Shown piece by piece: positions 5,452-53,848 of a stretch of 58,748 bases of DNA. The position numbers and the translations under genes were made by a program. The notes under the pieces were generated by a model that worked only from the letters and a program-made list of their open reading frames with translations, did no database searches and was not told where the DNA came from. How positions within the stretch are numbered: position 1 is the first letter of the stretch; each line of letters starts with the position of its first letter. The stretch lies in sequence record SRR22947727_255; one strand, 5' to 3'.

Positions 5452-7076
5452 GAAAGCTAAACGTACGTTGGCTTGGAAACCTTCCATACTCTGAGGCTTT
5501 AATCCTACAAAAAGGATTAAAAGAATCTGTAGCAGGAGAACATAATCCTTATGATTATTTACTGCTTTTAGAGCACAATAATGTCATTACCATTGGTCGA
5601 ACAGGAGATACAAATAACCTACTACTTGATAGTGAGGAACTAGAAAAAAAAGGTATTGAATTTTTTGAAACTGACAGAGGTGGTGATATAACTTTTCACG
5701 GCAAGGGTCAGCTAATTGGATATCCGATAATGAGACTTCAAGATCCTAAGAAAGTCATACCTTTTGTAAGAAGTCTTGAGCAAACAATAATTAAAACTCT
5801 TGATAGTTTTGATATAGAGGCTTTTTCAAAGGAAGATGATACTGGTGTATGGACATCAGAAGGGAAAATAGCATCGATAGGAGTAAAAGTTAGTAAATGG
5901 ACAACATATCATGGTTTCGCACTAAATATATTTGATAAACTTGAAGGCTTTGACTTCATAAACCCATGTGGAAATCAAGAGGAGAAAATAGCATCAGTAC
6001 ACACTTTCAATACTGAGATTTCATTTGATGATGTTGTGAATAAAATTACAGAGACTTTTACCGCTGAATTTGGCTACAAAGATGTAGGCATACAAATGTC
6101 ACAATTCACTCCAACCCAACTTAAAAAACACAAAAAACATGAAATTGATGAGATGCTTGATAAAGGTGTTTTTCAAAAAAATAACAATCTTGTACCAATT
6201 ACCATAAAAGGATTATTGCCTAATGAACCAGAAAGACCAGAATGGATGAAGGTAAAAGCAAACCTAGGAAAAGATTACAGAGATTTAAAGAACTTAATCT
6301 CAGAAAAAAAACTCAATACTGTCTGTGAAGAAGCCTCATGTCCAAATATATATGAGTGCTGGTCTATGGGCACAGCAACATTTATGATCATGGGAGATAC
6401 CTGCACCAGAGCTTGTGGATTCTGCGATGTTAATACTGGGAAGCCTAATGACCTTGATGATTTAGAACCATTGCGTGTTGCAGAAAGTGTTCTGACTATG
6501 GAGCTTACACATGCTGTAATAACCTCTGTGAATAGAGATGATCTTCCAGATGGTGGATCAAATTTTTTTGCACAGACAATAAATGAAGTTAAGAGGTTAA
6601 ACCCTTCAACAAGTGTAGAAGTTCTTATTCCAGACTTTAAGGGAGATAAAGGGGCTATAGATAACATTATTGAAGCAAGCCCGGAAGTTTTAAATCATAA
6701 TTTAGAAACAGTTCCACGACTTCAGCGTGAAATAAGAACTGCAGCATCATATGGTCGATCTCTTTCGTTATTGCAATACGCAAAAGAATCAGCATTCTTA
6801 GGTAAGACAAAAACGGGTCTCATTGTCGGAATGGGTGAAGAGTTTGAAGAGGTAATTGCCGTTTTAGAAGATCTCTCCCAAATTAATGTAGATATTGTAA
6901 CAATTGGTCAATACTTGAGACCAACAGCAAAACATAGACCAATTCACAGATATGTTGATAAAGAGGAATTTATAAAATACAAATCAATTGGAGAATCTTT
7001 TGGAATTCCTCATATTGAGTCAGGACCACTTGTTAGGTCCTCATATCACGCAAAAGACTCTTTTGCCTCTGTGTAA
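5448..7076 (+). CDS. lipB-lipA: Fused octanoyltransferase LipB and lipoyl synthase LipA
   Basis: N-half has LLLEH, RGGDITFHGKGQL, KIASIG, HGFALN and INPCG. C-half has CEEASCPNIYEC, CTRACGFC and RSSYHA. Confidence 0.94.
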   Translation: MRKLNVRWLGNLPYSEALILQKGLKESVAGEHNPYDYLLLLEHNNVITIGRTGDTNNLLLDSEELEKKGIEFFETDRGGDITFHGKGQLIGYPIMRLQDPKKVIPFVRSLEQTIIKTLDSFDIEAFSKEDDTGVWTSEGKIASIGVKVSKWTTYHGFALNIFDKLEGFDFINPCGNQEEKIASVHTFNTEISFDDVVNKITETFTAEFGYKDVGIQMSQFTPTQLKKHKKHEIDEMLDKGVFQKNNNLVPITIKGLLPNEPERPEWMKVKANLGKDYRDLKNLISEKKLNTVCEEASCPNIYECWSMGTATFMIMGDTCTRACGFCDVNTGKPNDLDDLEPLRVAESVLTMELTHAVITSVNRDDLPDGGSNFFAQTINEVKRLNPSTSVEVLIPDFKGDKGAIDNIIEASPEVLNHNLETVPRLQREIRTAASYGRSLSLLQYAKESAFLGKTKTGLIVGMGEEFEEVIAVLEDLSQINVDIVTIGQYLRPTAKHRPIHRYVDKEEFIKYKSIGESFGIPHIESGPLVRSSYHAKDSFASV

Positions 7077-7096
7077 CTAGGACCTATACTATTAAA

Positions 7097-9019
7097 ATGT
7101 TCGATAAAGTCACAACCTCATTGAGAATTCTTGCAGCTGCAGGTGTTGAAGAAGCGGCATCTGGCCATCCCGGAATGCCATTAGGAATGGCTGATGTTGG
7201 AACAGTCCTTTATAAAAAGTTTTTAAAAGTGTCAAATGAAAACCCCTCTTGGATAAATAGAGATCGGTTTATTTTGAGTCCAGGTCATGGATCAATGCTA
7301 CTTTATTCTTTACTTCATTTAAATGGCTTTGATTTAACAAAAGAAGACTTAAAGAATTTTCGACAGTTTGACTCAAAAACACCTGGCCATCCAGAATTTG
7401 ATTTATCTATAGGTATAGATATGACAACAGGTCCTTTGGGTCAAGGGTTTTCAACAGGAGTTGGTTTTGCAGTTGCTGAAAGATACCTCTCAGAACTTTT
7501 AGGAAAAGATATCATCGATCACTTTACTTATGGGATAGTTTCTGATGGAGATTTAATGGAAGGGATCTCTTTTGAGGCCGCCGAACTAGCCGCAGTTTGG
7601 AAACTTGGTAAGTTAATTTATGTGTTTGACAATAATAATATTTCAATTGACGGAAGGGTGTCAAAAGTATCGATCACTGATCAAAAAAAGAAATTTGAAG
7701 CAATTGGCTGGCATGTTCTTGAAGTCGATGCACATAACGAAGACGAGATTAGTACAGCCTTAGAGGATGCAAAGCTAATTACAGATAAGCCCTCAATAAT
7801 CATGGCTAAATCAATCATTGGTAAATTTGCACCAAACAAACAAGACACAAGTGGAATTCATGGATCACCGCTTGGAGCTGAAGAGATGGAAGAATTTAAG
7901 AAAAATCTGAAATGGCAAGGAGATTTATTTGAGCATGATTCAGATGTTTATGACTATTTTGCTGAGAAGAGAGATGAAGATAATCATGCACATAGTGATT
8001 GGGAAAAATTATTCCAGGAAAAATACAAAAGTGATGCAACATTTATGCAAAATTGGGATTTACTAATATCCAATGAGATGTCTACAGATTACAATTATGA
8101 AAATTTAACACAGGCAACACGCATTGCAGGATCTAATATATTAAATGAAATTGGAAAATATACTAATAATATTCTTGGTGGCTCTGCAGATCTAACAGCT
8201 TCAACCAAACAGATCATTGGTGATTCTACATTCTCAGAGTCTGATTTCTCCGGTAGAAATTTAGAGTATGGAATAAGAGAGCACGCTATGGGCGCAATAG
8301 TGAATGGCATCACACTACACAGTCATTTAATTGGCTATGGTTCAACTTTTCTAGTTTTCTCTGACTACATGAGGCCAAGCATACGACTTGCGGCTCTTAT
8401 GGATATTGATTCAGTATATATTTTTACACATGACTCAATATATCTAGGTGAAGATGGTCCCACACATCAACCAATAGAACACCTAATGGCCTTAAGATTA
8501 ATACCCAATTTAGATGTTATACGTCCATCTAATAGTATTGAAGTTGAATATGCTTATAGGTATGCATTTACAAAATCGGGTAATCCAAAGGCTATTGTTC
8601 TAACGAGGCAAAACCTGGAGTTTCTAAAATTTGAAAATGATTACGAAGATTTTACAAATGGTGCATCAATAGTTGCAGATGGAAAAGAAATTACAATATT
8701 TGCATCAGGATCAGAATTAGAGTTAGCATTTAATGTGAGAGAATATCTCAAAGATACATCCGTAAGAATTGTGAGTACTCCAATTTTAAATAAATTAGAA
8801 AAAGCTGAACCCGAAGCCATTGAGAATCTCAAAGTTAGTAATTTAAATTTTACGATTGAACTGGGGAGATCTATTGGCTGGGAAACATATTTAGGAGACA
8901 TAACAAAAGCGTTTAGTATTGACCAATTTGGGATATCAGCACCAATTAAAAACTTACAAGAGAATTTTAATTTTACGGTAGAACATATTGGTGATGAAAT
9001 TAAAAAGTTTCTAAATTAA
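7097..9019 (+). CDS. tkt: Transketolase
   Basis: SGHPG, TTGPLGQG, DGDLMEG, GIREHAM, THDSIYLGEDGPTHQP. Confidence 0.97.
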   Translation: MFDKVTTSLRILAAAGVEEAASGHPGMPLGMADVGTVLYKKFLKVSNENPSWINRDRFILSPGHGSMLLYSLLHLNGFDLTKEDLKNFRQFDSKTPGHPEFDLSIGIDMTTGPLGQGFSTGVGFAVAERYLSELLGKDIIDHFTYGIVSDGDLMEGISFEAAELAAVWKLGKLIYVFDNNNISIDGRVSKVSITDQKKKFEAIGWHVLEVDAHNEDEISTALEDAKLITDKPSIIMAKSIIGKFAPNKQDTSGIHGSPLGAEEMEEFKKNLKWQGDLFEHDSDVYDYFAEKRDEDNHAHSDWEKLFQEKYKSDATFMQNWDLLISNEMSTDYNYENLTQATRIAGSNILNEIGKYTNNILGGSADLTASTKQIIGDSTFSESDFSGRNLEYGIREHAMGAIVNGITLHSHLIGYGSTFLVFSDYMRPSIRLAALMDIDSVYIFTHDSIYLGEDGPTHQPIEHLMALRLIPNLDVIRPSNSIEVEYAYRYAFTKSGNPKAIVLTRQNLEFLKFENDYEDFTNGASIVADGKEITIFASGSELELAFNVREYLKDTSVRIVSTPILNKLEKAEPEAIENLKVSNLNFTIELGRSIGWETYLGDITKAFSIDQFGISAPIKNLQENFNFTVEHIGDEIKKFLN

Positions 9020-12381: not shown

Positions 12382-13023
12382 ATGAATTTGAGCACATTTA
12401 TCTATCTTGTTTTAATATTGAGTATTCCTTATTTTTGGTACATCAGATACTCAACTAACCCTAAAAAAGGCTTCAGCATGCTATTCATCGGGGTAATTTC
12501 TTTAATTTTATTTATAAATTTTAATCTATTTGTAATAGCTGGCTGTGCAGTTCTTGGATCAGTTTTACTCCACAAGAACAATAATTTAAGTCACTTCTCT
12601 TTTTTTACTAGCTTTATAGTTTTATTCACCAGTGCATTTAATACAGGTGCAGAAAACTTAATTTGGACTATTTTACCCATAACACTTGTCAGTGGCATCT
12701 TTTCACTGATGATGATTGGTCACTGGTTTTTAGTTGACCCAACAATTACTAGAATCGGTATGAAAAATATTGCTAGATCATCAATATTCATTGCAGCTGT
12801 TCTTTGCTTATTGCTTTTAACGGGATTTGCTTCAGAAGAATTATCAATTTTTTATAGAAATATTATTCTGGGTTTATACGTATCTTCGGGAATACTTTCA
12901 TTAGGTTCATTAAAATCATTAAATGAGAAATCATACACTGGAGTTATGGCTGCTACAGGTCTAAGTTATCTTTCACTTCTTGTCTCACTTGGTGGCACAG
13001 GAACCCTTATACTTTTGCCTTGA
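12382..13023 (+). CDS. Hypothetical polytopic membrane protein (GHWFLVDP and AATGLSY motifs)
   Basis: AAGGAG SD; several hydrophobic helices. Confidence 0.75.
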   Translation: MNLSTFIYLVLILSIPYFWYIRYSTNPKKGFSMLFIGVISLILFINFNLFVIAGCAVLGSVLLHKNNNLSHFSFFTSFIVLFTSAFNTGAENLIWTILPITLVSGIFSLMMIGHWFLVDPTITRIGMKNIARSSIFIAAVLCLLLLTGFASEELSIFYRNIILGLYVSSGILSLGSLKSLNEKSYTGVMAATGLSYLSLLVSLGGTGTLILLP

Positions 13024-14937: not shown

Positions 14938-17824
14938 CAACAATAAAAATTAGGCTATCTCCTGTAGAAACTGTTCCACCTTGTGCTACATTTGTTCCAA
15001 TAACCTTGCCCTGACAATCTGGTATCTCAGATTCTTCAAATGAATTTTTCAAGAACAAGATAACACTTGTTTCTCTCATAAAGTCTTTGATTAAAACTTC
15101 TGCTTCATCTTTCGTATAGGTACAAGGAGGTATATTCGGAATCGCAGCTGTAAATTTTGTACCAGAAACTTCAAGTACAACTTCTGTCCCCTCAGGCATC
15201 TCTTCTCCACTTTCAATACTCTGGGTAAGAACTAATCCCGGGGCCTCTTCAGAATCAATAAGCTTTATTGTTGGTAATATATATCCAGAAAATGCAATTT
15301 CTTCAGCATCGATGATATTAAGTCCTAGTAACTGAGGTATTTCAATTGTTGGAATTTCATAATATTTATCAATATCACTTGGATCAGCTGGCCACTCTTC
15401 AATTGGTAAATCCTCAACAACTTTCTCCATAAATTCTTTCCAAATAGGTGCTGGTACTCGTCCACCAGAAACACTTGATACAACTTCCCCATTAATCTCA
15501 ACATTTGTAAGGGGGAGCTGTTCTTCTGCAAAGCCAATCCATACAGAGGAGGTATATTGAGGAATAAATCCAATAAACCATGCTTCTCTAAATCCTTGAT
15601 GAGTCCCAGTTTTACCAGCAATAGGTCTGTCATCAAGTACGGCTCTAGTTCCCGTACCGTACTGAGCTGCTACTTCAAGAGTTTTTCTTACTGCTGCTGC
15701 TGCTCCAGGGTCAGGAATCGTTACTCTTTGGGATGAGATGTGTTGATAAAGTATCTGACCATTAGAGTCAGTTATTTTATCAATTAAGTACGTAGGTGCT
15801 AAGTATCCATTATTTGCGAAGGAAGAATATGCTGAAGCCAGTTCAATTGGAGTTACAGCTCCAGCACCAAGAGTTAACGAGATTACAGGATCTAATTCTG
15901 ACTCTATGCCAATTCTGTTGGCCGTACTGGACAGTTTTTCTCCACCAAGCTCTGAGGCAAGTTGTGCAAACACTGTATTCACAGATTTTCTAGTTGCTTC
16001 TTCCAGTGAAACCATTCCTGAGGTGTCTAGGAGTTTAATAGATCTATTGTATTCTGATTTATCTACACATGGTTTGAAGATAAATTGAGTTTCACTTTCA
16101 AGGTTAATTTGAATTAAATTAGCTTGTTCTTCAATCAAGACAGGATCGCTAACTGAGACTAAGGTTCGTCCTTCATCATCTTCTGTGATCACATTTTCAT
16201 CTTCGGTATAGATTACAATACCTCCATCTTCTGAATATTGACCTAGTGCAATGCCTATTGCTAATAATTTATCGACCTCTTCTTCAAGTTCAGCTATCTC
16301 TGACGAAATAGGAAACTGATCAATAAAATCTTTGTTTTTTATCTCTTCCGCATGAAAACCTACACATTGAAGTTCAATGGCTCTGTCCTGTGCAGGAAGT
16401 TTATTTATAAACCTGTCAGCTTTAATTGACGTGCCATAATTTCTTACAACCCATTTAGTACCAATACCATCAGGAGCACATGGATATCCACAATCAATTT
16501 CAACAGGGCTTCTTGAGTCTCTTGTACTGTATAGCTTTGCTCCAGACTCCAATGCTGCAAGCAAGGTAATTGGTTTAAATGCTGAACCAGGATTTCTCTT
16601 TCCTTGTGTAGCAAGATTATACTGTTCTTCTTCGAAAGGTAGACCAGAAGCCATAACCTCAATGGCTCCAGTTTTATTATTGATTAATGTAATTACTCCC
16701 GTCGGCTTAGGTTCTGATTCTTCTAGAATTACATCAGCTTCAGTATCTATAATTTCTGATGGAACCCATTTATTCAAAACCTCGTTAGCGTGATTTTGTA
16801 ATTCTAAATTAACTGTTATATTTATAGTCAAACCACCACCACCAGTACACGAAGTATCATCTGATGGACATCCAAAAAGAGCTTTTTTCCTTTCTTCTTT
16901 TGTAGATCCAAGAACTGCAAATTTTGGTTCATTAAGTAATCTTCTTTTTACCTCAGCAGAAACGTGTTCAGCTTTATTTGAAAGTGTATTTGGCTCTGCA
17001 ATTGTAAGCGGGGCCAACCTTGCAGACCTGTGCTGAATATCTACAATAAATCCTTCTTTAAGCATGACATCTAAAACATCGTTTCTTCTTTCCAGTACTC
17101 TTTCTGGATATTTTCTAGGGTTGTAATATGCTGGACTTCTTATGATGACCACTAGTGTTGCTGCCTCATCTAAAGTAATATCACCAACATCTTTGTTGAA
17201 ATATTCAAACGAAGCTGATTGGAGGCCATAAGCTCCAGAACCCCAATATATGGAGTTAATATAATATTCTAAAATTTGATCTTTTGAATATCTTCTTTCT
17301 AATTCAGCTGCTACTACGGCCTCTGCAACCTTTCTTCTTATGGAGATTTCATCACCTACAAAAGATTGTTTAGCGACTTGAGATGTAATAGTTGAGCCAC
17401 CCCTAGTAACTCCTCTTAAGTTATCAACTACAGCACTTAATATCGCTACAAAATCTACACCTTCATGTTGATAATAATTACTATCTTCTGCAGCAAGGAG
17501 TGTGTTGATAACAAAAGGAGGGACATCTGATAATTTGATCGGATCCCTATTAAGACCATCATGAAGTTCGTCTAATATCTGATTATCTGAAGTAACTATT
17601 ATCGAAGGTTCAGATAATGATACAAAATCTAAAACCATACCCTCAGCCCTTGGTAAGAATTTTTCTTCCAAACTGGTTACTACTTCCATTGCAGATTTTA
17701 TAGGTAAAAATGTGAAAAAAGCAAACCACCCTGAAAGCAATAGAGCACTAACTAAAAGACCAAATCCAGCTATATATCTAATTCCATACCTGGATTTATT
17801 TTCTAAATTATGGATTTGTGCCAT
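14915..17824 (-). CDS. Class A penicillin-binding protein (transglycosylase/transpeptidase) with C-terminal PASTA-like domains
   Basis: EDSNYYQHEGVD, GGSTITSQVAK and RKVAE in the TG domain; SAFK, SVN and KTGT in the TP domain; N-terminal TM. Confidence 0.93.
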   Translation of the reverse strand: MAQIHNLENKSRYGIRYIAGFGLLVSALLLSGWFAFFTFLPIKSAMEVVTSLEEKFLPRAEGMVLDFVSLSEPSIIVTSDNQILDELHDGLNRDPIKLSDVPPFVINTLLAAEDSNYYQHEGVDFVAILSAVVDNLRGVTRGGSTITSQVAKQSFVGDEISIRRKVAEAVVAAELERRYSKDQILEYYINSIYWGSGAYGLQSASFEYFNKDVGDITLDEAATLVVIIRSPAYYNPRKYPERVLERRNDVLDVMLKEGFIVDIQHRSARLAPLTIAEPNTLSNKAEHVSAEVKRRLLNEPKFAVLGSTKEERKKALFGCPSDDTSCTGGGGLTINITVNLELQNHANEVLNKWVPSEIIDTEADVILEESEPKPTGVITLINNKTGAIEVMASGLPFEEEQYNLATQGKRNPGSAFKPITLLAALESGAKLYSTRDSRSPVEIDCGYPCAPDGIGTKWVVRNYGTSIKADRFINKLPAQDRAIELQCVGFHAEEIKNKDFIDQFPISSEIAELEEEVDKLLAIGIALGQYSEDGGIVIYTEDENVITEDDEGRTLVSVSDPVLIEEQANLIQINLESETQFIFKPCVDKSEYNRSIKLLDTSGMVSLEEATRKSVNTVFAQLASELGGEKLSSTANRIGIESELDPVISLTLGAGAVTPIELASAYSSFANNGYLAPTYLIDKITDSNGQILYQHISSQRVTIPDPGAAAAVRKTLEVAAQYGTGTRAVLDDRPIAGKTGTHQGFREAWFIGFIPQYTSSVWIGFAEEQLPLTNVEINGEVVSSVSGGRVPAPIWKEFMEKVVEDLPIEEWPADPSDIDKYYEIPTIEIPQLLGLNIIDAEEIAFSGYILPTIKLIDSEEAPGLVLTQSIESGEEMPEGTEVVLEVSGTKFTAAIPNIPPCTYTKDEAEVLIKDFMRETSVILFLKNSFEESEIPDCQGKVIGTNVAQGGTVSTGDSLIFIVANSQNES

Positions 17825-42249: not shown

Positions 42250-43422
42250 TTAATCTTCTTCCAAAGAAACGAATGTATCAAATCCATACTTCATATCTAT
42301 GATTTCATATAACGGCCATCCATAAGGAGTGCAACCATCTGTAGTTTTGCTTTGTTGCATCATTACTGGTGCTAGTGCTCCATCTTTAGGACAACCAGTA
42401 TGACCCCAACCTAAAATATGACCAGTTTCATGATTTATTAAATAAAGTCTGTATGTTCTCATATCATTACCAAAATCAATAGCACCACTTTCCCAACGGA
42501 AATAGTTAATGATTATCTCTTCTTCATTCCTACATGAGTAAATACCATTAGTTTCCAAAGGGGCACAAAGCTCATCTGTTTTATCTGGAGATGAAAAAAT
42601 AAAAGTAAAATCAGCTTCCTCTTCGCTGACAAGTAAAAACTTTTTTTCAGTAATATTACTCCAACCTCTTGTGTCATTGAGAATTGAAGATATTAACTTT
42701 CCCATACAATCTGGACCAACCGGAATGCTCGTTTCAATTTTTAATGCGAAATTTATGAAGTTGTCATCTCTAACCTGTATTTCTTCAGGATATAACCATT
42801 CATCATCACTGCTGACTAATCCTCTGTTGATACAACCACTTTTTAAAAAGTTATAGGATATTACCTGTGCTTGTAGAAGTTCATCACTGTTAGCAAATAT
42901 AGCTGTTCTCTTAATACTTGATTTAAACCTTTCTTCATATAATGAGGTGATTAGCACTGTTTCCTGTTCAAGATTTTCAATAATGTCTGTATATTTGATT
43001 ACTTCTAAAAGTTTATTTATATTGTTTTGAGATAAATCTTTTGTATTTCGTACTAGAAAGTTAGTAGCTTCTTGAGCCAGTTCTTCATAGACATTCTTTT
43101 CTTTTAAAATCAGCAAGTTTGCTTCATAAGTATCTTTCAAACATTCTGGTTCAGAATAGGCAAGTTCAATCTTAGTCTTGCAGTTTGTAATATTCGAAGT
43201 ATAGATGTTGACAATAAAATCCTGAAGGCTTTCATCTGGAAATGGAAAATTTTCTACAAGTTGAGTGGTCGAGGTACTTTCAGTCGATTTAATAGTAACA
43301 GTGGGTACTTCTTCTGCTGCGATGACAACTTCACCGTCTGAATTTGAAAAGTATGTCAATGCTGAGATTGATACAACCGTTAAGAGTGTAAAAAGTATTA
43401 CTAATTGTGTCTTGTTATTCAC
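42250..43422 (-). CDS. Membrane-anchored DUF3152-domain zincin-like protein
   Basis: LNDTRGW, YSCR, YLINHETGHILGWGHTGCP, APVMMQQS. Confidence 0.85.
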   Translation of the reverse strand: MNNKTQLVILFTLLTVVSISALTYFSNSDGEVVIAAEEVPTVTIKSTESTSTTQLVENFPFPDESLQDFIVNIYTSNITNCKTKIELAYSEPECLKDTYEANLLILKEKNVYEELAQEATNFLVRNTKDLSQNNINKLLEVIKYTDIIENLEQETVLITSLYEERFKSSIKRTAIFANSDELLQAQVISYNFLKSGCINRGLVSSDDEWLYPEEIQVRDDNFINFALKIETSIPVGPDCMGKLISSILNDTRGWSNITEKKFLLVSEEEADFTFIFSSPDKTDELCAPLETNGIYSCRNEEEIIINYFRWESGAIDFGNDMRTYRLYLINHETGHILGWGHTGCPKDGALAPVMMQQSKTTDGCTPYGWPLYEIIDMKYGFDTFVSLEED

Positions 43423-43457
43423 TATCTAATTTTAGCGACAAAAAGTTCAAATCAGCT

Positions 43458-44021
43458 TTAATTAATTTTGTAACCTTTTTCATCTATAAATTCTTCTGGT
43501 TCTAGTCCCAAACCATCAGCAACACGATTTATGTAATTAAAATAAGAAACTATTTGGACTATCTCTGAGATTTCCTTATCGCTTAAATCATAATTTGAAA
43601 GGGTATCAATATCTAATTTAGTAATAGTGCTTGGCTGTAAAGTTAACTTTTCAGCAAATAAACACATTGCAGTTTGTATTTCACTTATAGAGCTATTTTT
43701 CCAATTAGCTGCTATCTCGTCTACAAGCTTTTGGTTTTGGGTCTCCGACCGGAGATCATATAAATGAGAACGTACTCAATACTCACATTCATTTGCTAAT
43801 GAAGTTACTACGGCTAATAATTCCCTATCAAATCTATCTATCTTAGAATTTCCATACATAGTGGAACCGTACAACCTCATAGAATCTTCTAAGATTTCAG
43901 GTGTCTGAGATTGAATAGTTAACACTTTCCATATACGACCAGCTCGTCTGATTCCCTTTTCATATTCCTTTTTCAACAAACCACTGGAGTTTTCAAAATT
44001 AAAAATGTTTATAAATGCCAT
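43458..44021 (-). CDS. AhpD/CMD-like peroxidase, predicted selenoprotein (CxxU, Sec82), 187 aa
   Basis: The two track ORFs are in one frame and joined by a single TGA (43776-43778): RELLAVVTSLANECEY-U-VRSHLYDL...FAEKLT...YFNYINRVADGLG. A hairpin follows the TGA. Confidence 0.85.
43742..43778 (-). promoter_or_regulatory. Candidate bacterial SECIS element
   Basis: UGA, 20 nt, then UCUCC-GGUC-GGAGA: a 5-bp stem with a G-initiated loop 26 nt after the UGA. Confidence 0.75.
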
Positions 44022-44051
44022 ATTTAATATTTTTGCTTTAAAATTGAAATT

Positions 44052-44492
44052 ATGCAACTACCTGATGAATTAAAAATAGCAATAGATAGAAACGCATTTT
44101 GTGCAATGGCAACACATTTAAATATGAATGAAATTCAAAACCATTTAATGTGGATTGATTATGTCGGTGAGAATCTAGTTATCAATACTGAAAAAGGTAG
44201 GCAAAAGACCCTCAATATTAGGAGCGACAAAAATATCTCACTTGTTATATTTGAGCCCCAAGCGATGTACTCCAGTTGGGAAATCAGGGGAGAGGTCCAA
44301 GAGGTCATAGATGACAGCACAGCTAATAATCACATTGATAGGTTATCAAATAGGTACACCGGGCATCCATACAATAGAGATAATGATGTAAGTTGGGAAG
44401 AAGCTCAAATCAAAGATAGAGAGATGTGGAAAATTAAAATAAACAAATTAATATCAATGGTCCGACCTCAGGCTAAATCTGATCCTGAGTAA
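44052..44492 (+). CDS. PPOX-class (FDOR) F420-dependent oxidoreductase
   Basis: MWID...INTEKGRQKTLNIRSDKNISL...EIRG...HIDRLSNRYTG pattern. Confidence 0.8.
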   Translation: MQLPDELKIAIDRNAFCAMATHLNMNEIQNHLMWIDYVGENLVINTEKGRQKTLNIRSDKNISLVIFEPQAMYSSWEIRGEVQEVIDDSTANNHIDRLSNRYTGHPYNRDNDVSWEEAQIKDREMWKIKINKLISMVRPQAKSDPE

Positions 44493-45115
44493 AACTTTAA
44501 GTAGGGATTTTCTTCAAAAAGTTTTTTATTTTCTTCTGAAAGCTGAGAGACAATTAATTCCTCAGCTTCAAAGGTGAGATTTCCACCGCGTGATTCAATA
44601 TGCTCATTTTTAAGAAAAATTGATTTAGGTGTTTTTTTGAGGTATCTCTTAAAATTTTCCTCTGAAATCCTTAATTCTTTAGCTAGAGAAAGTTCGACTT
44701 TAACGGAAACTGGCAGAACGTTACACGCAAAGACATACAACGAGCCAAACATTGCCCAATCATAATCTGTTATTCTTCTGCTTTTCTCAAAGCTAGTAAA
44801 GTCATGTTTCATAAAATATTTATAGGGACTGTGGTTAATTCCAGACTTATCACCAAGCATTTTAAAGAGATATCTATCTAAAAGCTTTACATCTAGGGAG
44901 GCAGTCAATCCCTCTAAACCTTTTTTAGTTAAAGAAAATTGGTCTTGATGGGTTTCAATCCTCAGATTATTAATTATTATTTTTCCAAAATAATTCTCAA
45001 TCTCTACAAATAGTGATAGATTTTTAGGGATAAAGATGAGGCCTTCATTATCATCACTATTTAATTCCACAGTCAACTTTGAAGTTAATGCAAAATCATT
45101 TCCTTGTATTTTCAT
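44468..45115 (-). CDS. Hypothetical protein with possible C-terminal HTH
   Basis: 215-aa ORF containing RRITD...LAKELRISEENFKRYL...GGNLT. Confidence 0.65.
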   Translation of the reverse strand: MKIQGNDFALTSKLTVELNSDDNEGLIFIPKNLSLFVEIENYFGKIIINNLRIETHQDQFSLTKKGLEGLTASLDVKLLDRYLFKMLGDKSGINHSPYKYFMKHDFTSFEKSRRITDYDWAMFGSLYVFACNVLPVSVKVELSLAKELRISEENFKRYLKKTPKSIFLKNEHIESRGGNLTFEAEELIVSQLSEENKKLFEENPYLKFYSGSDLA

Positions 45116-45160: not shown

Positions 45161-45500
45161 GGGGGTGAACTGGCTTCGACTTTGAAGTGAGTCTCTCAGT
45201 AGCGAGCCGAGGGACCTAGGGCCTCGTTAAAAACGTAGGAAAACAATATAACTGCCAAACCTAAATTGGCTTTAGCCGCTTAATGCGACTCGTCGACCAT
45301 CGGGGCTCCCACCTCGGATGGTATCGGCGTCGAAATGTGGGATGCTAAGTTAAGCTACCGATTAACTTTTAAGATTAAGGTAGAAAACTTTTGAGAATAT
45401 GTCTCTGGTGTCTTTCTCAAAAGTATTAACACCAGATGCGCTCGGAGAAGCTGTTAGGTAGCTTAAAAGGACCGGGGTTCGACTCCCCGCACCTCCACCA
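45161..45500 (+). ncRNA. ssrA: tmRNA
   Basis: 5' GGGGGTGAACTGGCTTCGAC and 3' GGGGTTCGACTCCCCGCACCTCCACCA; G3.U pair in the acceptor stem; tag ORF 45254-45283 AKPKLALAA*. Confidence 0.97.
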
Positions 45501-53768: not shown

Positions 53769-53840
53769 TGGGAGATGGTGTAATTGGCAACACATTTGGT
53801 TTTGGTCCAAACGTTGAGGGTTCGAGTCCTTCTCTCCCAG
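53769..53840 (+). tRNA. tRNA-Gln(UUG), CCA not encoded
   Basis: Acceptor stem TGGGAGA/TCTCCCA, anticodon arm TTTGG-TTTTGGT-CCAAA, T-loop GGTTCGAGTCC. Confidence 0.96.
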
Positions 53841-53848
53841 CAAATTAA

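Follow-up and report, generated by a model that had tools for sequence, protein, structure and literature searches.

The closest described relatives of the gene analysed here belong to the AhpD-like selenoprotein family of Zhang, Gladyshev and co-workers. An "AhpD-like protein" family with a CxxU motif is described from the Sargasso Sea, where it comprises 27 sequences of COG2128 (PMC1088965, 2005). In the GOS data the family appears as "AhpD-like 1" and is counted among the most abundant ones, 299 of its selenoproteins having been found across 37 samples (PMC2398784, 2008). An earlier reading of the DNA, made from the sequence alone, had stated that AhpD-like selenoproteins are known from marine metagenomes, and these two reports agree with it. 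A 2026 review lists the family in a table as TIGR01926 with CxxU (PMC13188914), and a 2026 database paper uses it as a browsing example (PMC13326102). The sections of PMC1088965, PMC2398784 and PMC13188914 drawn on here assign none of the AhpD-like sequences to Actinomarina. A preprint on Actinomarina (10.64898/2026.04.03.716425) describes selC, selA and selD, along with a selB that is divergent, in each of 84 complete genomes. It locates selA where a hypervariable region has its right edge, and predicts about five selenoproteins per genome. It calls most of these selenoprotein families uncharacterised, and the word AhpD occurs 0 times in its main text.

Three further systems serve as references. 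Bacterial SECIS elements are described as stem-loops just 3' of the UGA, having an apical loop that is small and includes a G (PMC1088965). In the SECIS of E. coli fdhF, three nucleotides are described as conserved: U17, which bulges from the stem, and two nucleotides of the apical loop, G23 and U24. SelB contacts U17 and G23 (PMC8659212). The proton relay of M. tuberculosis AhpD is reported to consist of Glu118, Cys130, Cys133 and His137 (PMC6300522).

We analysed a 58,748-nucleotide stretch of DNA from sequence record SRR22947727_255 (the window). It contains one intact gene in which, with a probability of roughly 0.93, a UGA, codon 82, specifies selenocysteine in an AhpD-like oxidoreductase. 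The gene resembles the published family in its TIGR01926 membership, its CxxU motif and its surface-ocean lineage, and nothing essential differs. It is a genuine selenoprotein gene. Its family is known, and use of selenocysteine by its lineage has just been reported. The find is an ordinary one, because both the AhpD-like CxxU family and selenocysteine use in Actinomarina are already in print, and it leaves the current understanding of selenocysteine decoding unchanged.

Reading frame and predicted active site

The gene is a single frame of 187 codons with one in-frame TGA (Table 1). Under translation table 11 this frame is cut into two ORFs, one of 93 and one of 69 residues, separated by the TGA and 36 open codons; the two same-frame fragments noticed in the sequence-only reading were checked as these ORFs. 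Translation with TGA as U from the ATG at 44021 yields a protein of 187 residues. Both the motif NECEY-U-VRSH and, close to the C-terminal end, FNYINRVADGLG are present in it, in agreement with what had been claimed. The start was placed at this ATG because the sequence MAFI is kept at the start of all 31 orthologues, while residues upstream of it are not conserved.

Table 1. Features of the AhpD-like selenoprotein gene, in window coordinates.
Feature	Position	Strand	Remarks
Complete CDS, AhpD-like (TIGR01926 / CMD) selenoprotein	43458..44021	minus	187 codons + TAA stop; ATG at 44021
Table-11 ORF, upstream part	44057..43776	minus	93 aa, TTG start
Table-11 ORF, downstream part	43667..43458	minus	69 aa
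Glu67, 12 residues before Cys79; position of M. tuberculosis AhpD Glu118	43821..43823	minus	invariant in 31/31
Cys79, first residue of CxxU	43785..43787	minus	invariant in 31/31 genus sequences (TGT 29, TGC 2)
In-frame TGA, U82, second position of CxxU	43776..43778	minus	TGA in 31/31 genus sequences
His86, 4 residues after U82; position of M. tuberculosis AhpD His137	43764..43766	minus	invariant in 31/31
SECIS-like hairpin UCUCC/GGAGA with GGUC tetraloop	43742..43755	minus	21 nt after UGA; fold and conservation
5' arm of the stem, UCUCC	43755..43751	minus	
Apical loop, GGUC	43750..43747	minus	
3' arm of the stem, GGAGA	43746..43742	minus	

The read-through protein matched the Pfam family CMD (PF02627) with 39.9 bits (cut-off 23, E 4e-10) and the NCBIfam model TIGR01926, "peroxidase-related enzyme", with 126.2 bits (cut-off 81.8). 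The model for AhpD proper, TIGR00777, gave 15.9 bits. Because this score lies far under its cut-off of 191.95, we assign the gene to the peroxidase-related branch and do not consider it an AhpD orthologue. NF041238 (AhpD_rel_CFYUT) likewise has CxxU in an AhpD-related domain; by score the gene is not a member, with 51.3 bits against a cut-off of 175 and a match confined to positions 214-341 of the 357 in the model.

In a sequence search, solved AhpD-like structures aligned with the protein over residues 10-177 (E 3.7e-25 to 1.4e-15). The best match was PDB 6k40 (E 3.7e-25 over residues 10-176), and the others were 2oyo, 3c1l, 2pfx and 2prr; homology to 6k40, 2oyo and 3c1l is nearly full-length. 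In 6k40 (NRCVYC) and in 2oyo, the residue opposite U82 was the second Cys of CxxC, as expected from the earlier proposal that the TGA stands for the second Cys of the family motif CxxCxxxH. The active-site motif reads E67-x11-C79-x-x-U82-x-x-x-H86. Its spacing is that of the M. tuberculosis AhpD proton relay, with Sec in place of the second Cys.

Judged by these alignments, the region encodes an AhpD-like protein (TIGR01926, carboxymuconolactone-decarboxylase fold) with a predicted thiol/selenol oxidoreductase activity. U82, together with C79, H86 and E67, would cycle between a selenol/thiol and a selenenylsulfide state. This cycle may serve to reduce a peroxiredoxin partner, or may act directly on peroxides. 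A predicted peroxide/thiol redox enzyme fits the lifestyle of a lineage of the sunlit surface. One neighbouring gene belongs to DUF3152, another is PNPOx-like and a third matches no family; no AhpC partner gene was found among the immediate neighbours.

The hairpin 3' of the UGA

The sequence-only reading had described a stem-loop, UCUCC-GGUC-GGAGA, that begins 21 nt after the UGA and is made of codons that stand out in this DNA. The stem-loop is present (Table 1). It is encoded by CTC CGG TCG GAG, comprises 14 nt with a stem of 5 bp, and has a folding energy of -6.2 kcal/mol. For bacterial SECIS elements, a spacing of 16-37 nt is commonly quoted.

Folding energy was ordinary compared with shuffled sequences. 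For a 71-nt stretch the z-score was +0.38, with 125 of 200 shuffles folding as well, and for a 23-nt stretch it was -0.73, with 34 of 200 shuffles folding as well. The hairpin stands above chance because of its conservation and the rarity of its codons, not because of folding energy. An alignment of 31 sequences has 90 degenerate columns with an invariant residue, and only three of these use a single codon: codons 91 (CGG), 92 (TCG) and 93 (GAG). The loop of the hairpin and its 3' arm consist of these three codons. At other columns with an invariant Arg or Leu, as many as six codons occur. In the 37 long ORFs of the window, CGG accounts for 1.4% of Arg codons, TCG for 4.3% of Ser and CTC for 7.1% of Leu, which places the hairpin codons among its rarest; GAG accounts for 28.7% of Glu.

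Within the genus, the stem varies only between CTC and CTT, a change of one C-G pair to U-G. RNAalifold, run on 27 distinct sequences, predicted the UCUCC/GGAGA helix and nothing else. At the same offset, a helix of 7-8 bp occurs in 17 Sec forms that come from GC-rich relatives with 41-50% identity. It reads GACCUCC-loop-GGAGGUC, in which the loop is GGUC or has six bases starting with CGG or CGU.

In a count over 41 distinct sequences, four pairs of the stem are kept in 41, 41, 41 and 39. No variation occurs at 25-36 or 26-35. At 27-34, 36 sequences have C-G and 5 have U-G, and at 24-37, 24 have U-A, 14 have C-G, 1 has U-G and 2 have no pair. Paired cells amounted to 80.5%, compared with 33-52% when the partners were slid. 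Covariation was modest, with a compensatory change in one core pair only, and that pair broken in 2 of 41 sequences. The covariation score of 0.214 was matched by 0.213 when the 3' partners were slid by +3, a setting in which 45.7% of cells were paired. Note that kinship of the sequences inflates the shuffle control. With a single covarying pair and a +3 slide that scores alike, the case for the hairpin rests mainly on the frozen synonymous sites and on one compensatory pair.

Some of the conservation at the nucleotide level could be due to the peptide DLR[SA]E, which is encoded here and is itself conserved. Sec forms have this peptide, and Cys forms have others in its place. In the latter, Leu90 is replaced by Tyr or Phe, and as a result the 5' arm of the hairpin is disrupted. 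With DLR[SA]E confined in this way to Sec forms, the gene is a clear case of a protein sequence dictated by an RNA signal.

Compared with the hairpin of E. coli fdhF, which we read from NC_000913 and folded, the window hairpin has the same GGUC apical loop, and both are located within the coding frame, directly 3' of the UGA. Unlike fdhF, the window hairpin has a stem of 5 bp, no bulged U equivalent to U17 and no lower stem. Counted from the U of the UGA, its loop occupies nucleotides 29-32, versus 22-25 in fdhF. The stem of only 5 bp and the position of the loop, 7 nt farther from the UGA than in fdhF, were counted against the hairpin. An Rfam scan of 43400-44100 returned only a chance snoRNA match (E 8.3); Rfam is not known to represent bacterial SECIS elements well (preprint 10.64898/2026.04.03.716425).

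Selenocysteine might be inserted at codon 82 although the 14-nt hairpin is not the whole or the true SECIS, SelB recognising a larger or a different structure. We consider this unlikely. Such a reading would attribute the conservation to the DLR[SA]E peptide or to another role, and it draws on the short stem, on a folding energy that is ordinary among shuffles and on covariation that is limited and equalled by one sliding control. It also draws on the selD hairpin of the genus, which has a similar stem (CUCC...GGAG) but a different loop and lies 10 nt after the selD UGA. What speaks against it is that codon choice is fixed beyond the residues encoded, at three columns that all fall inside the hairpin and use rare codons. 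In addition, the helix is the only one found by RNAalifold and recurs with 7-8 bp at an unchanged offset in GC-rich relatives, the Leu to Tyr or Phe replacement in Cys forms disrupts its 5' arm, and its loop is that of fdhF.

That the 14-nt, 5-bp hairpin with its GGUC loop is a complete SECIS, shortened from the element of 7-8 bp that the GC-rich relatives have, is a tentative proposal to which we give somewhat less than even odds. If it is correct, the hairpin would rank among the smallest natural bacterial SECIS elements. The short hairpin could be a useful test case for the least that SelB needs for recognition in an AT-rich, streamlined genome, and the gene could serve to model a very short SECIS.

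Selenocysteine machinery in Actinomarina

No selA, selB, selC or selD was seen in the window, where a tRNA scan gave only tRNA-Gln and tmRNA; the sequence-only reading had noted the same absence. Its further suggestion, that this streamlined actinobacterium uses selenocysteine, is supported by the genus, which carries tRNA-Sec, selA, selB and selD. Among 64 genus genomes, tRNA-Sec was found in 59, including all 12 assemblies that are at least 90% complete. selA was found in 52 (51 over the cut-off) and selB in 49, and the two genes are adjacent in genus genomes. selD contained a TGA in 24 of 25 cases.

The genome nearest to the window, G001 (3 contigs, 90% complete), has 46% of sampled 31-mers in common with it and contains the same 901 bp at a reported identity of 100%. 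The search for sel genes proposed in the sequence-only reading gave a divided result in this genome. A tRNA-Sec with anticodon UCA (75 bits) adjoins hflX, and selD contains one in-frame TGA in the motif SGSG-U-ACK. No match to selA or selB was obtained with TIGR00474, PF03841, TIGR00475, PF09107 or protein queries from the genus, and the locus lies off a contig end.

These results in G001, which keeps the TGA-containing AhpD-like gene, the TGA in selD and tRNA-Sec, could be taken to mean that the strain has lost selA and selB. The UGA would then be read otherwise, by near-cognate suppression inserting Cys or Trp or by an unknown form of recoding, or Sec would be charged and delivered by an undescribed route. 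We regard a strain truly devoid of both genes as very improbable. A second genome, G049, whose AhpD-like gene is 99% identical to that of the window, has selA (4959-6254 of L064) and selB (6251-7921). A 16-kb query around these two genes had a single match in G001, at positions 1-380 of contig C3, corresponding to query positions 15619-15998 with 94% identity. What G001 misses is a whole block of 15.6 kb, including glnII-, phoB-, erpA- and CorC-like genes, and contig C3 starts exactly where homology resumes, 7.7 kb beyond the position of selB in G049. Since C3 starts beside this locus, the missing selA and selB of G001 probably reflect an assembly gap. The preprint's finding that selA, selC, selD and a selB of divergent sequence occur in every one of 84 complete Actinomarina genomes, with selA at a hypervariable region's edge, also argues against a loss.

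Two other genomes raised the same point. In G011, about 0.9 kb separates the end of contig C5 from where selA would begin. G010 consists of a single contig, which ends inside a gene for a B12-dependent ribonucleotide reductase, beside glycosyltransferases; because its end falls inside this gene, the contig is not closed. From the mapping of contig ends and the unclosed contig of G010, we rejected a real loss of selA and selB in G001, G010 and G011.

We conclude that the Actinomarina lineage has a complete bacterial Sec system, and infer that the same holds for the strain from which the window derives. The sequence-only reading had held that, should the genome lack the sel genes, an unexplained recoding route or a split-gene strategy would be implied. 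No such route is needed, because the genus has tRNA-Sec, selA, selB and selD. The AhpD-like gene identifies one of the approximately five selenoproteins per Actinomarina genome.

The SelB of G049 contains a SelB-wing_3 domain, the winged-helix domain that binds SECIS elements. Decoding of the UGA as selenocysteine would proceed as follows. As the ribosome nears the UGA, a complex of SelB, GTP and Sec-tRNA(Sec) would bind the GGUC-looped hairpin through the C-terminal winged-helix domain of SelB. The hairpin-bound complex would deliver Sec-tRNA(Sec) into the A site, and translation would run on for 105 codons.

Conservation of the UGA and selection on either side of it

The sequence-only reading had raised the possibility that the TGA is private to this assembly. 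To place the codon among relatives, 64 species genomes of Actinomarina were searched for the AhpD-like gene, which was found in 54; the 10 genomes with no match are all incomplete. Exactly one TGA occurs in each match that reaches the column, that is, in 53 of the 54 gene-bearing genomes (52 full-length matches and 3 fragments of genome G080). The only match with no TGA, in genome G022, covers residues 1-37 and ends short of the column. All 30 extracted loci, with amino-acid identities of 71-99%, contain CEY-TGA-[VI][RT][SA]H.

A draw of 401 genomes from the class gave 138 with a match. Among the best 34 of these matches outside the genus (at least 41% identity), 31 have one TGA and 3 have none. 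The three, from genus g126, have Cys at the U82 column and have lost the first Cys (STRYC); more distant relatives likewise have Cys at the U82 column. The TGA is therefore shared well beyond this assembly, and the alignment of homologues shows TGA in the Sec forms and Cys in the PDB chains, in g126 and in distant relatives.

Selection was estimated on both sides of the TGA, relaxed selection downstream having been named beforehand as an outcome that would speak against a selenoprotein. Over all pairs of 31 sequences (Nei-Gojobori), dN/dS was 0.07 upstream and 0.14 downstream, at dS values near saturation (1.3-1.4). For the 52 pairs with a whole-gene dS of 0.05-0.8, the values were 0.049 and 0.091. 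Both halves are under purifying selection, and given this selection the downstream half is clearly translated and constrained.

These data bear on the view that the locus is a pseudogene or a split gene, in which the protein is cut short at residue 81 by a nonsense mutation, and what lies downstream either decays or has its own expression from an ATG at 43667. Table 11 does yield two ORFs, and gene callers would annotate them so. This view is already contradicted, and we regard it as extremely improbable: the same TGA recurs across the genus and in most of the best class matches, the 36 bridging codons and the remainder downstream are under purifying selection (dN/dS 0.09), and the TGA column is that of the catalytic Cys of the family. 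For an intact selenoprotein gene, the consequence is mainly one of annotation, as it should be recorded as one whole gene and not as two fragments.

A similar correction applies to public protein collections, which print Trp at the catalytic selenocysteine: 37 full-length relatives (184-190 residues) carry W at the U82 column. This W is best read as a product of gene calling with code 4 on short contigs. The least probable of all the readings, that TGA is a sense codon throughout the genome (code 4 or 25, Trp or Gly), finds its support in these entries, but is opposed by homologues that lack the TGA and have Cys at the column, not Trp or Gly, by the existence of tRNA-Sec, selD, selA and selB in the genus, and by the use of TGA in the window itself. 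TGA ends 8 of the 37 long non-overlapping ORFs, from which it follows that it is not a sense codon in this organism, and the AhpD-like frame is the only credible TGA read-through in the 58.7 kb.

selD as a second selenoprotein gene

In the genus, selD itself encodes a selenoprotein with the motif GxG-U-xCK (L001 and L119-L138; see table). A conserved hairpin, CUCNC-loop-GNGAG, begins ~10 nt 3' of its UGA. Codon choice is invariant for GAG and CTT (19/19 distinct sequences), and one G-C/U-A switch was observed among the distinct genus sequences. The stem resembles that of the AhpD-like hairpin, whereas the loop (CAA, CUA or ACCAA in selD) and the spacing from the UGA differ.

Residues at the selenocysteine column

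Among close class relatives, Cys at the column of U82, the selenocysteine of the AhpD-like protein, was found only in genus g126. In these forms the motif has lost its first Cys (STRYC). DYRDE or DFRDE stands in place of the DLR[SA]E of the Sec forms, and the hairpin is therefore decaying there. The sequences of the g126 forms suggest a Sec-to-Cys conversion with a shift to a one-Cys mechanism.

Full-length public predicted proteins of this family (P0002-P0045, P0056, P0059, P0060 and P0063) carry Trp at this column. The Trp is best read as the product of code-4 style gene calling at a TGA on short contigs and, for metagenome protein sets, as systematic mis-translation. In two relatives of 42-45% identity (P0057 and P0058), Arg occupies the Sec/Cys column of the predicted protein sequences, which read CDYR and CHYR.

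Apparent absence of sel genes from genus assemblies

In several genus assemblies, contigs break at or beside the selA-selB operon, which repeatedly makes sel genes seem 'absent' from these MAGs. The break positions agree with a preprint (10.64898/2026.04.03.716425) in which selA borders a hypervariable region. The genus member G010, a single contig of 1,012,864 bp (loci L141 and L142) ending inside a ribonucleotide reductase gene, carries selD with TGA as well as tRNA-Sec. A search of this contig found no AhpD-like gene, selA, selB, or erpA- and CorC-like genes. In its first 8 kb, no more than three ORFs reach 120 aa, and there is no Rfam match.

Surroundings of the gene in the window

Features located in the window and in related genomes
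Feature	Location	Strand	Remark
Contig break at/near selA-selB	G001:C3 start
Contig break at/near selA-selB	G011:C5 end
Contig break at/near selA-selB	G079:C39:10-1278
Contig break at/near selA-selB	G008:C7:3-800
Contig break at/near selA-selB	G076:C12:2-1024
selD, nearest genome	G001:C1:911738-912664		L001
selD, further genus loci			L119-L138
Cys-form homologues	G276, G282, G321		L084-L086; genus g126
DUF3152 protein	window 42250-43422	-	Zn-peptidase-like HExxH; neighbour
PNPOx-like flavin-binding protein	window 44052-44492	+	neighbour
215-aa protein	window 44468-45115	-	neighbour; Pfam search
tmRNA	window 45161-45500	+	tag AKPKLALAA; tRNA/tmRNA scan
tRNA-Gln	window 53769-53841		tRNA/tmRNA scan

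The PNPOx-like gene starts only 30 nt from the selenoprotein gene, on the opposite strand. The 215-aa protein had no Pfam match, and none of the three neighbours is an adjoining peroxiredoxin partner gene. The tmRNA gene lies ~1.1 kb from the selenoprotein gene. Elsewhere, at window position 13021 (+), 222 open codons and a further 185 in the same frame are separated by one TGA (...LILLP-TGA-HYANN...); the two stretches are probably adjacent genes.
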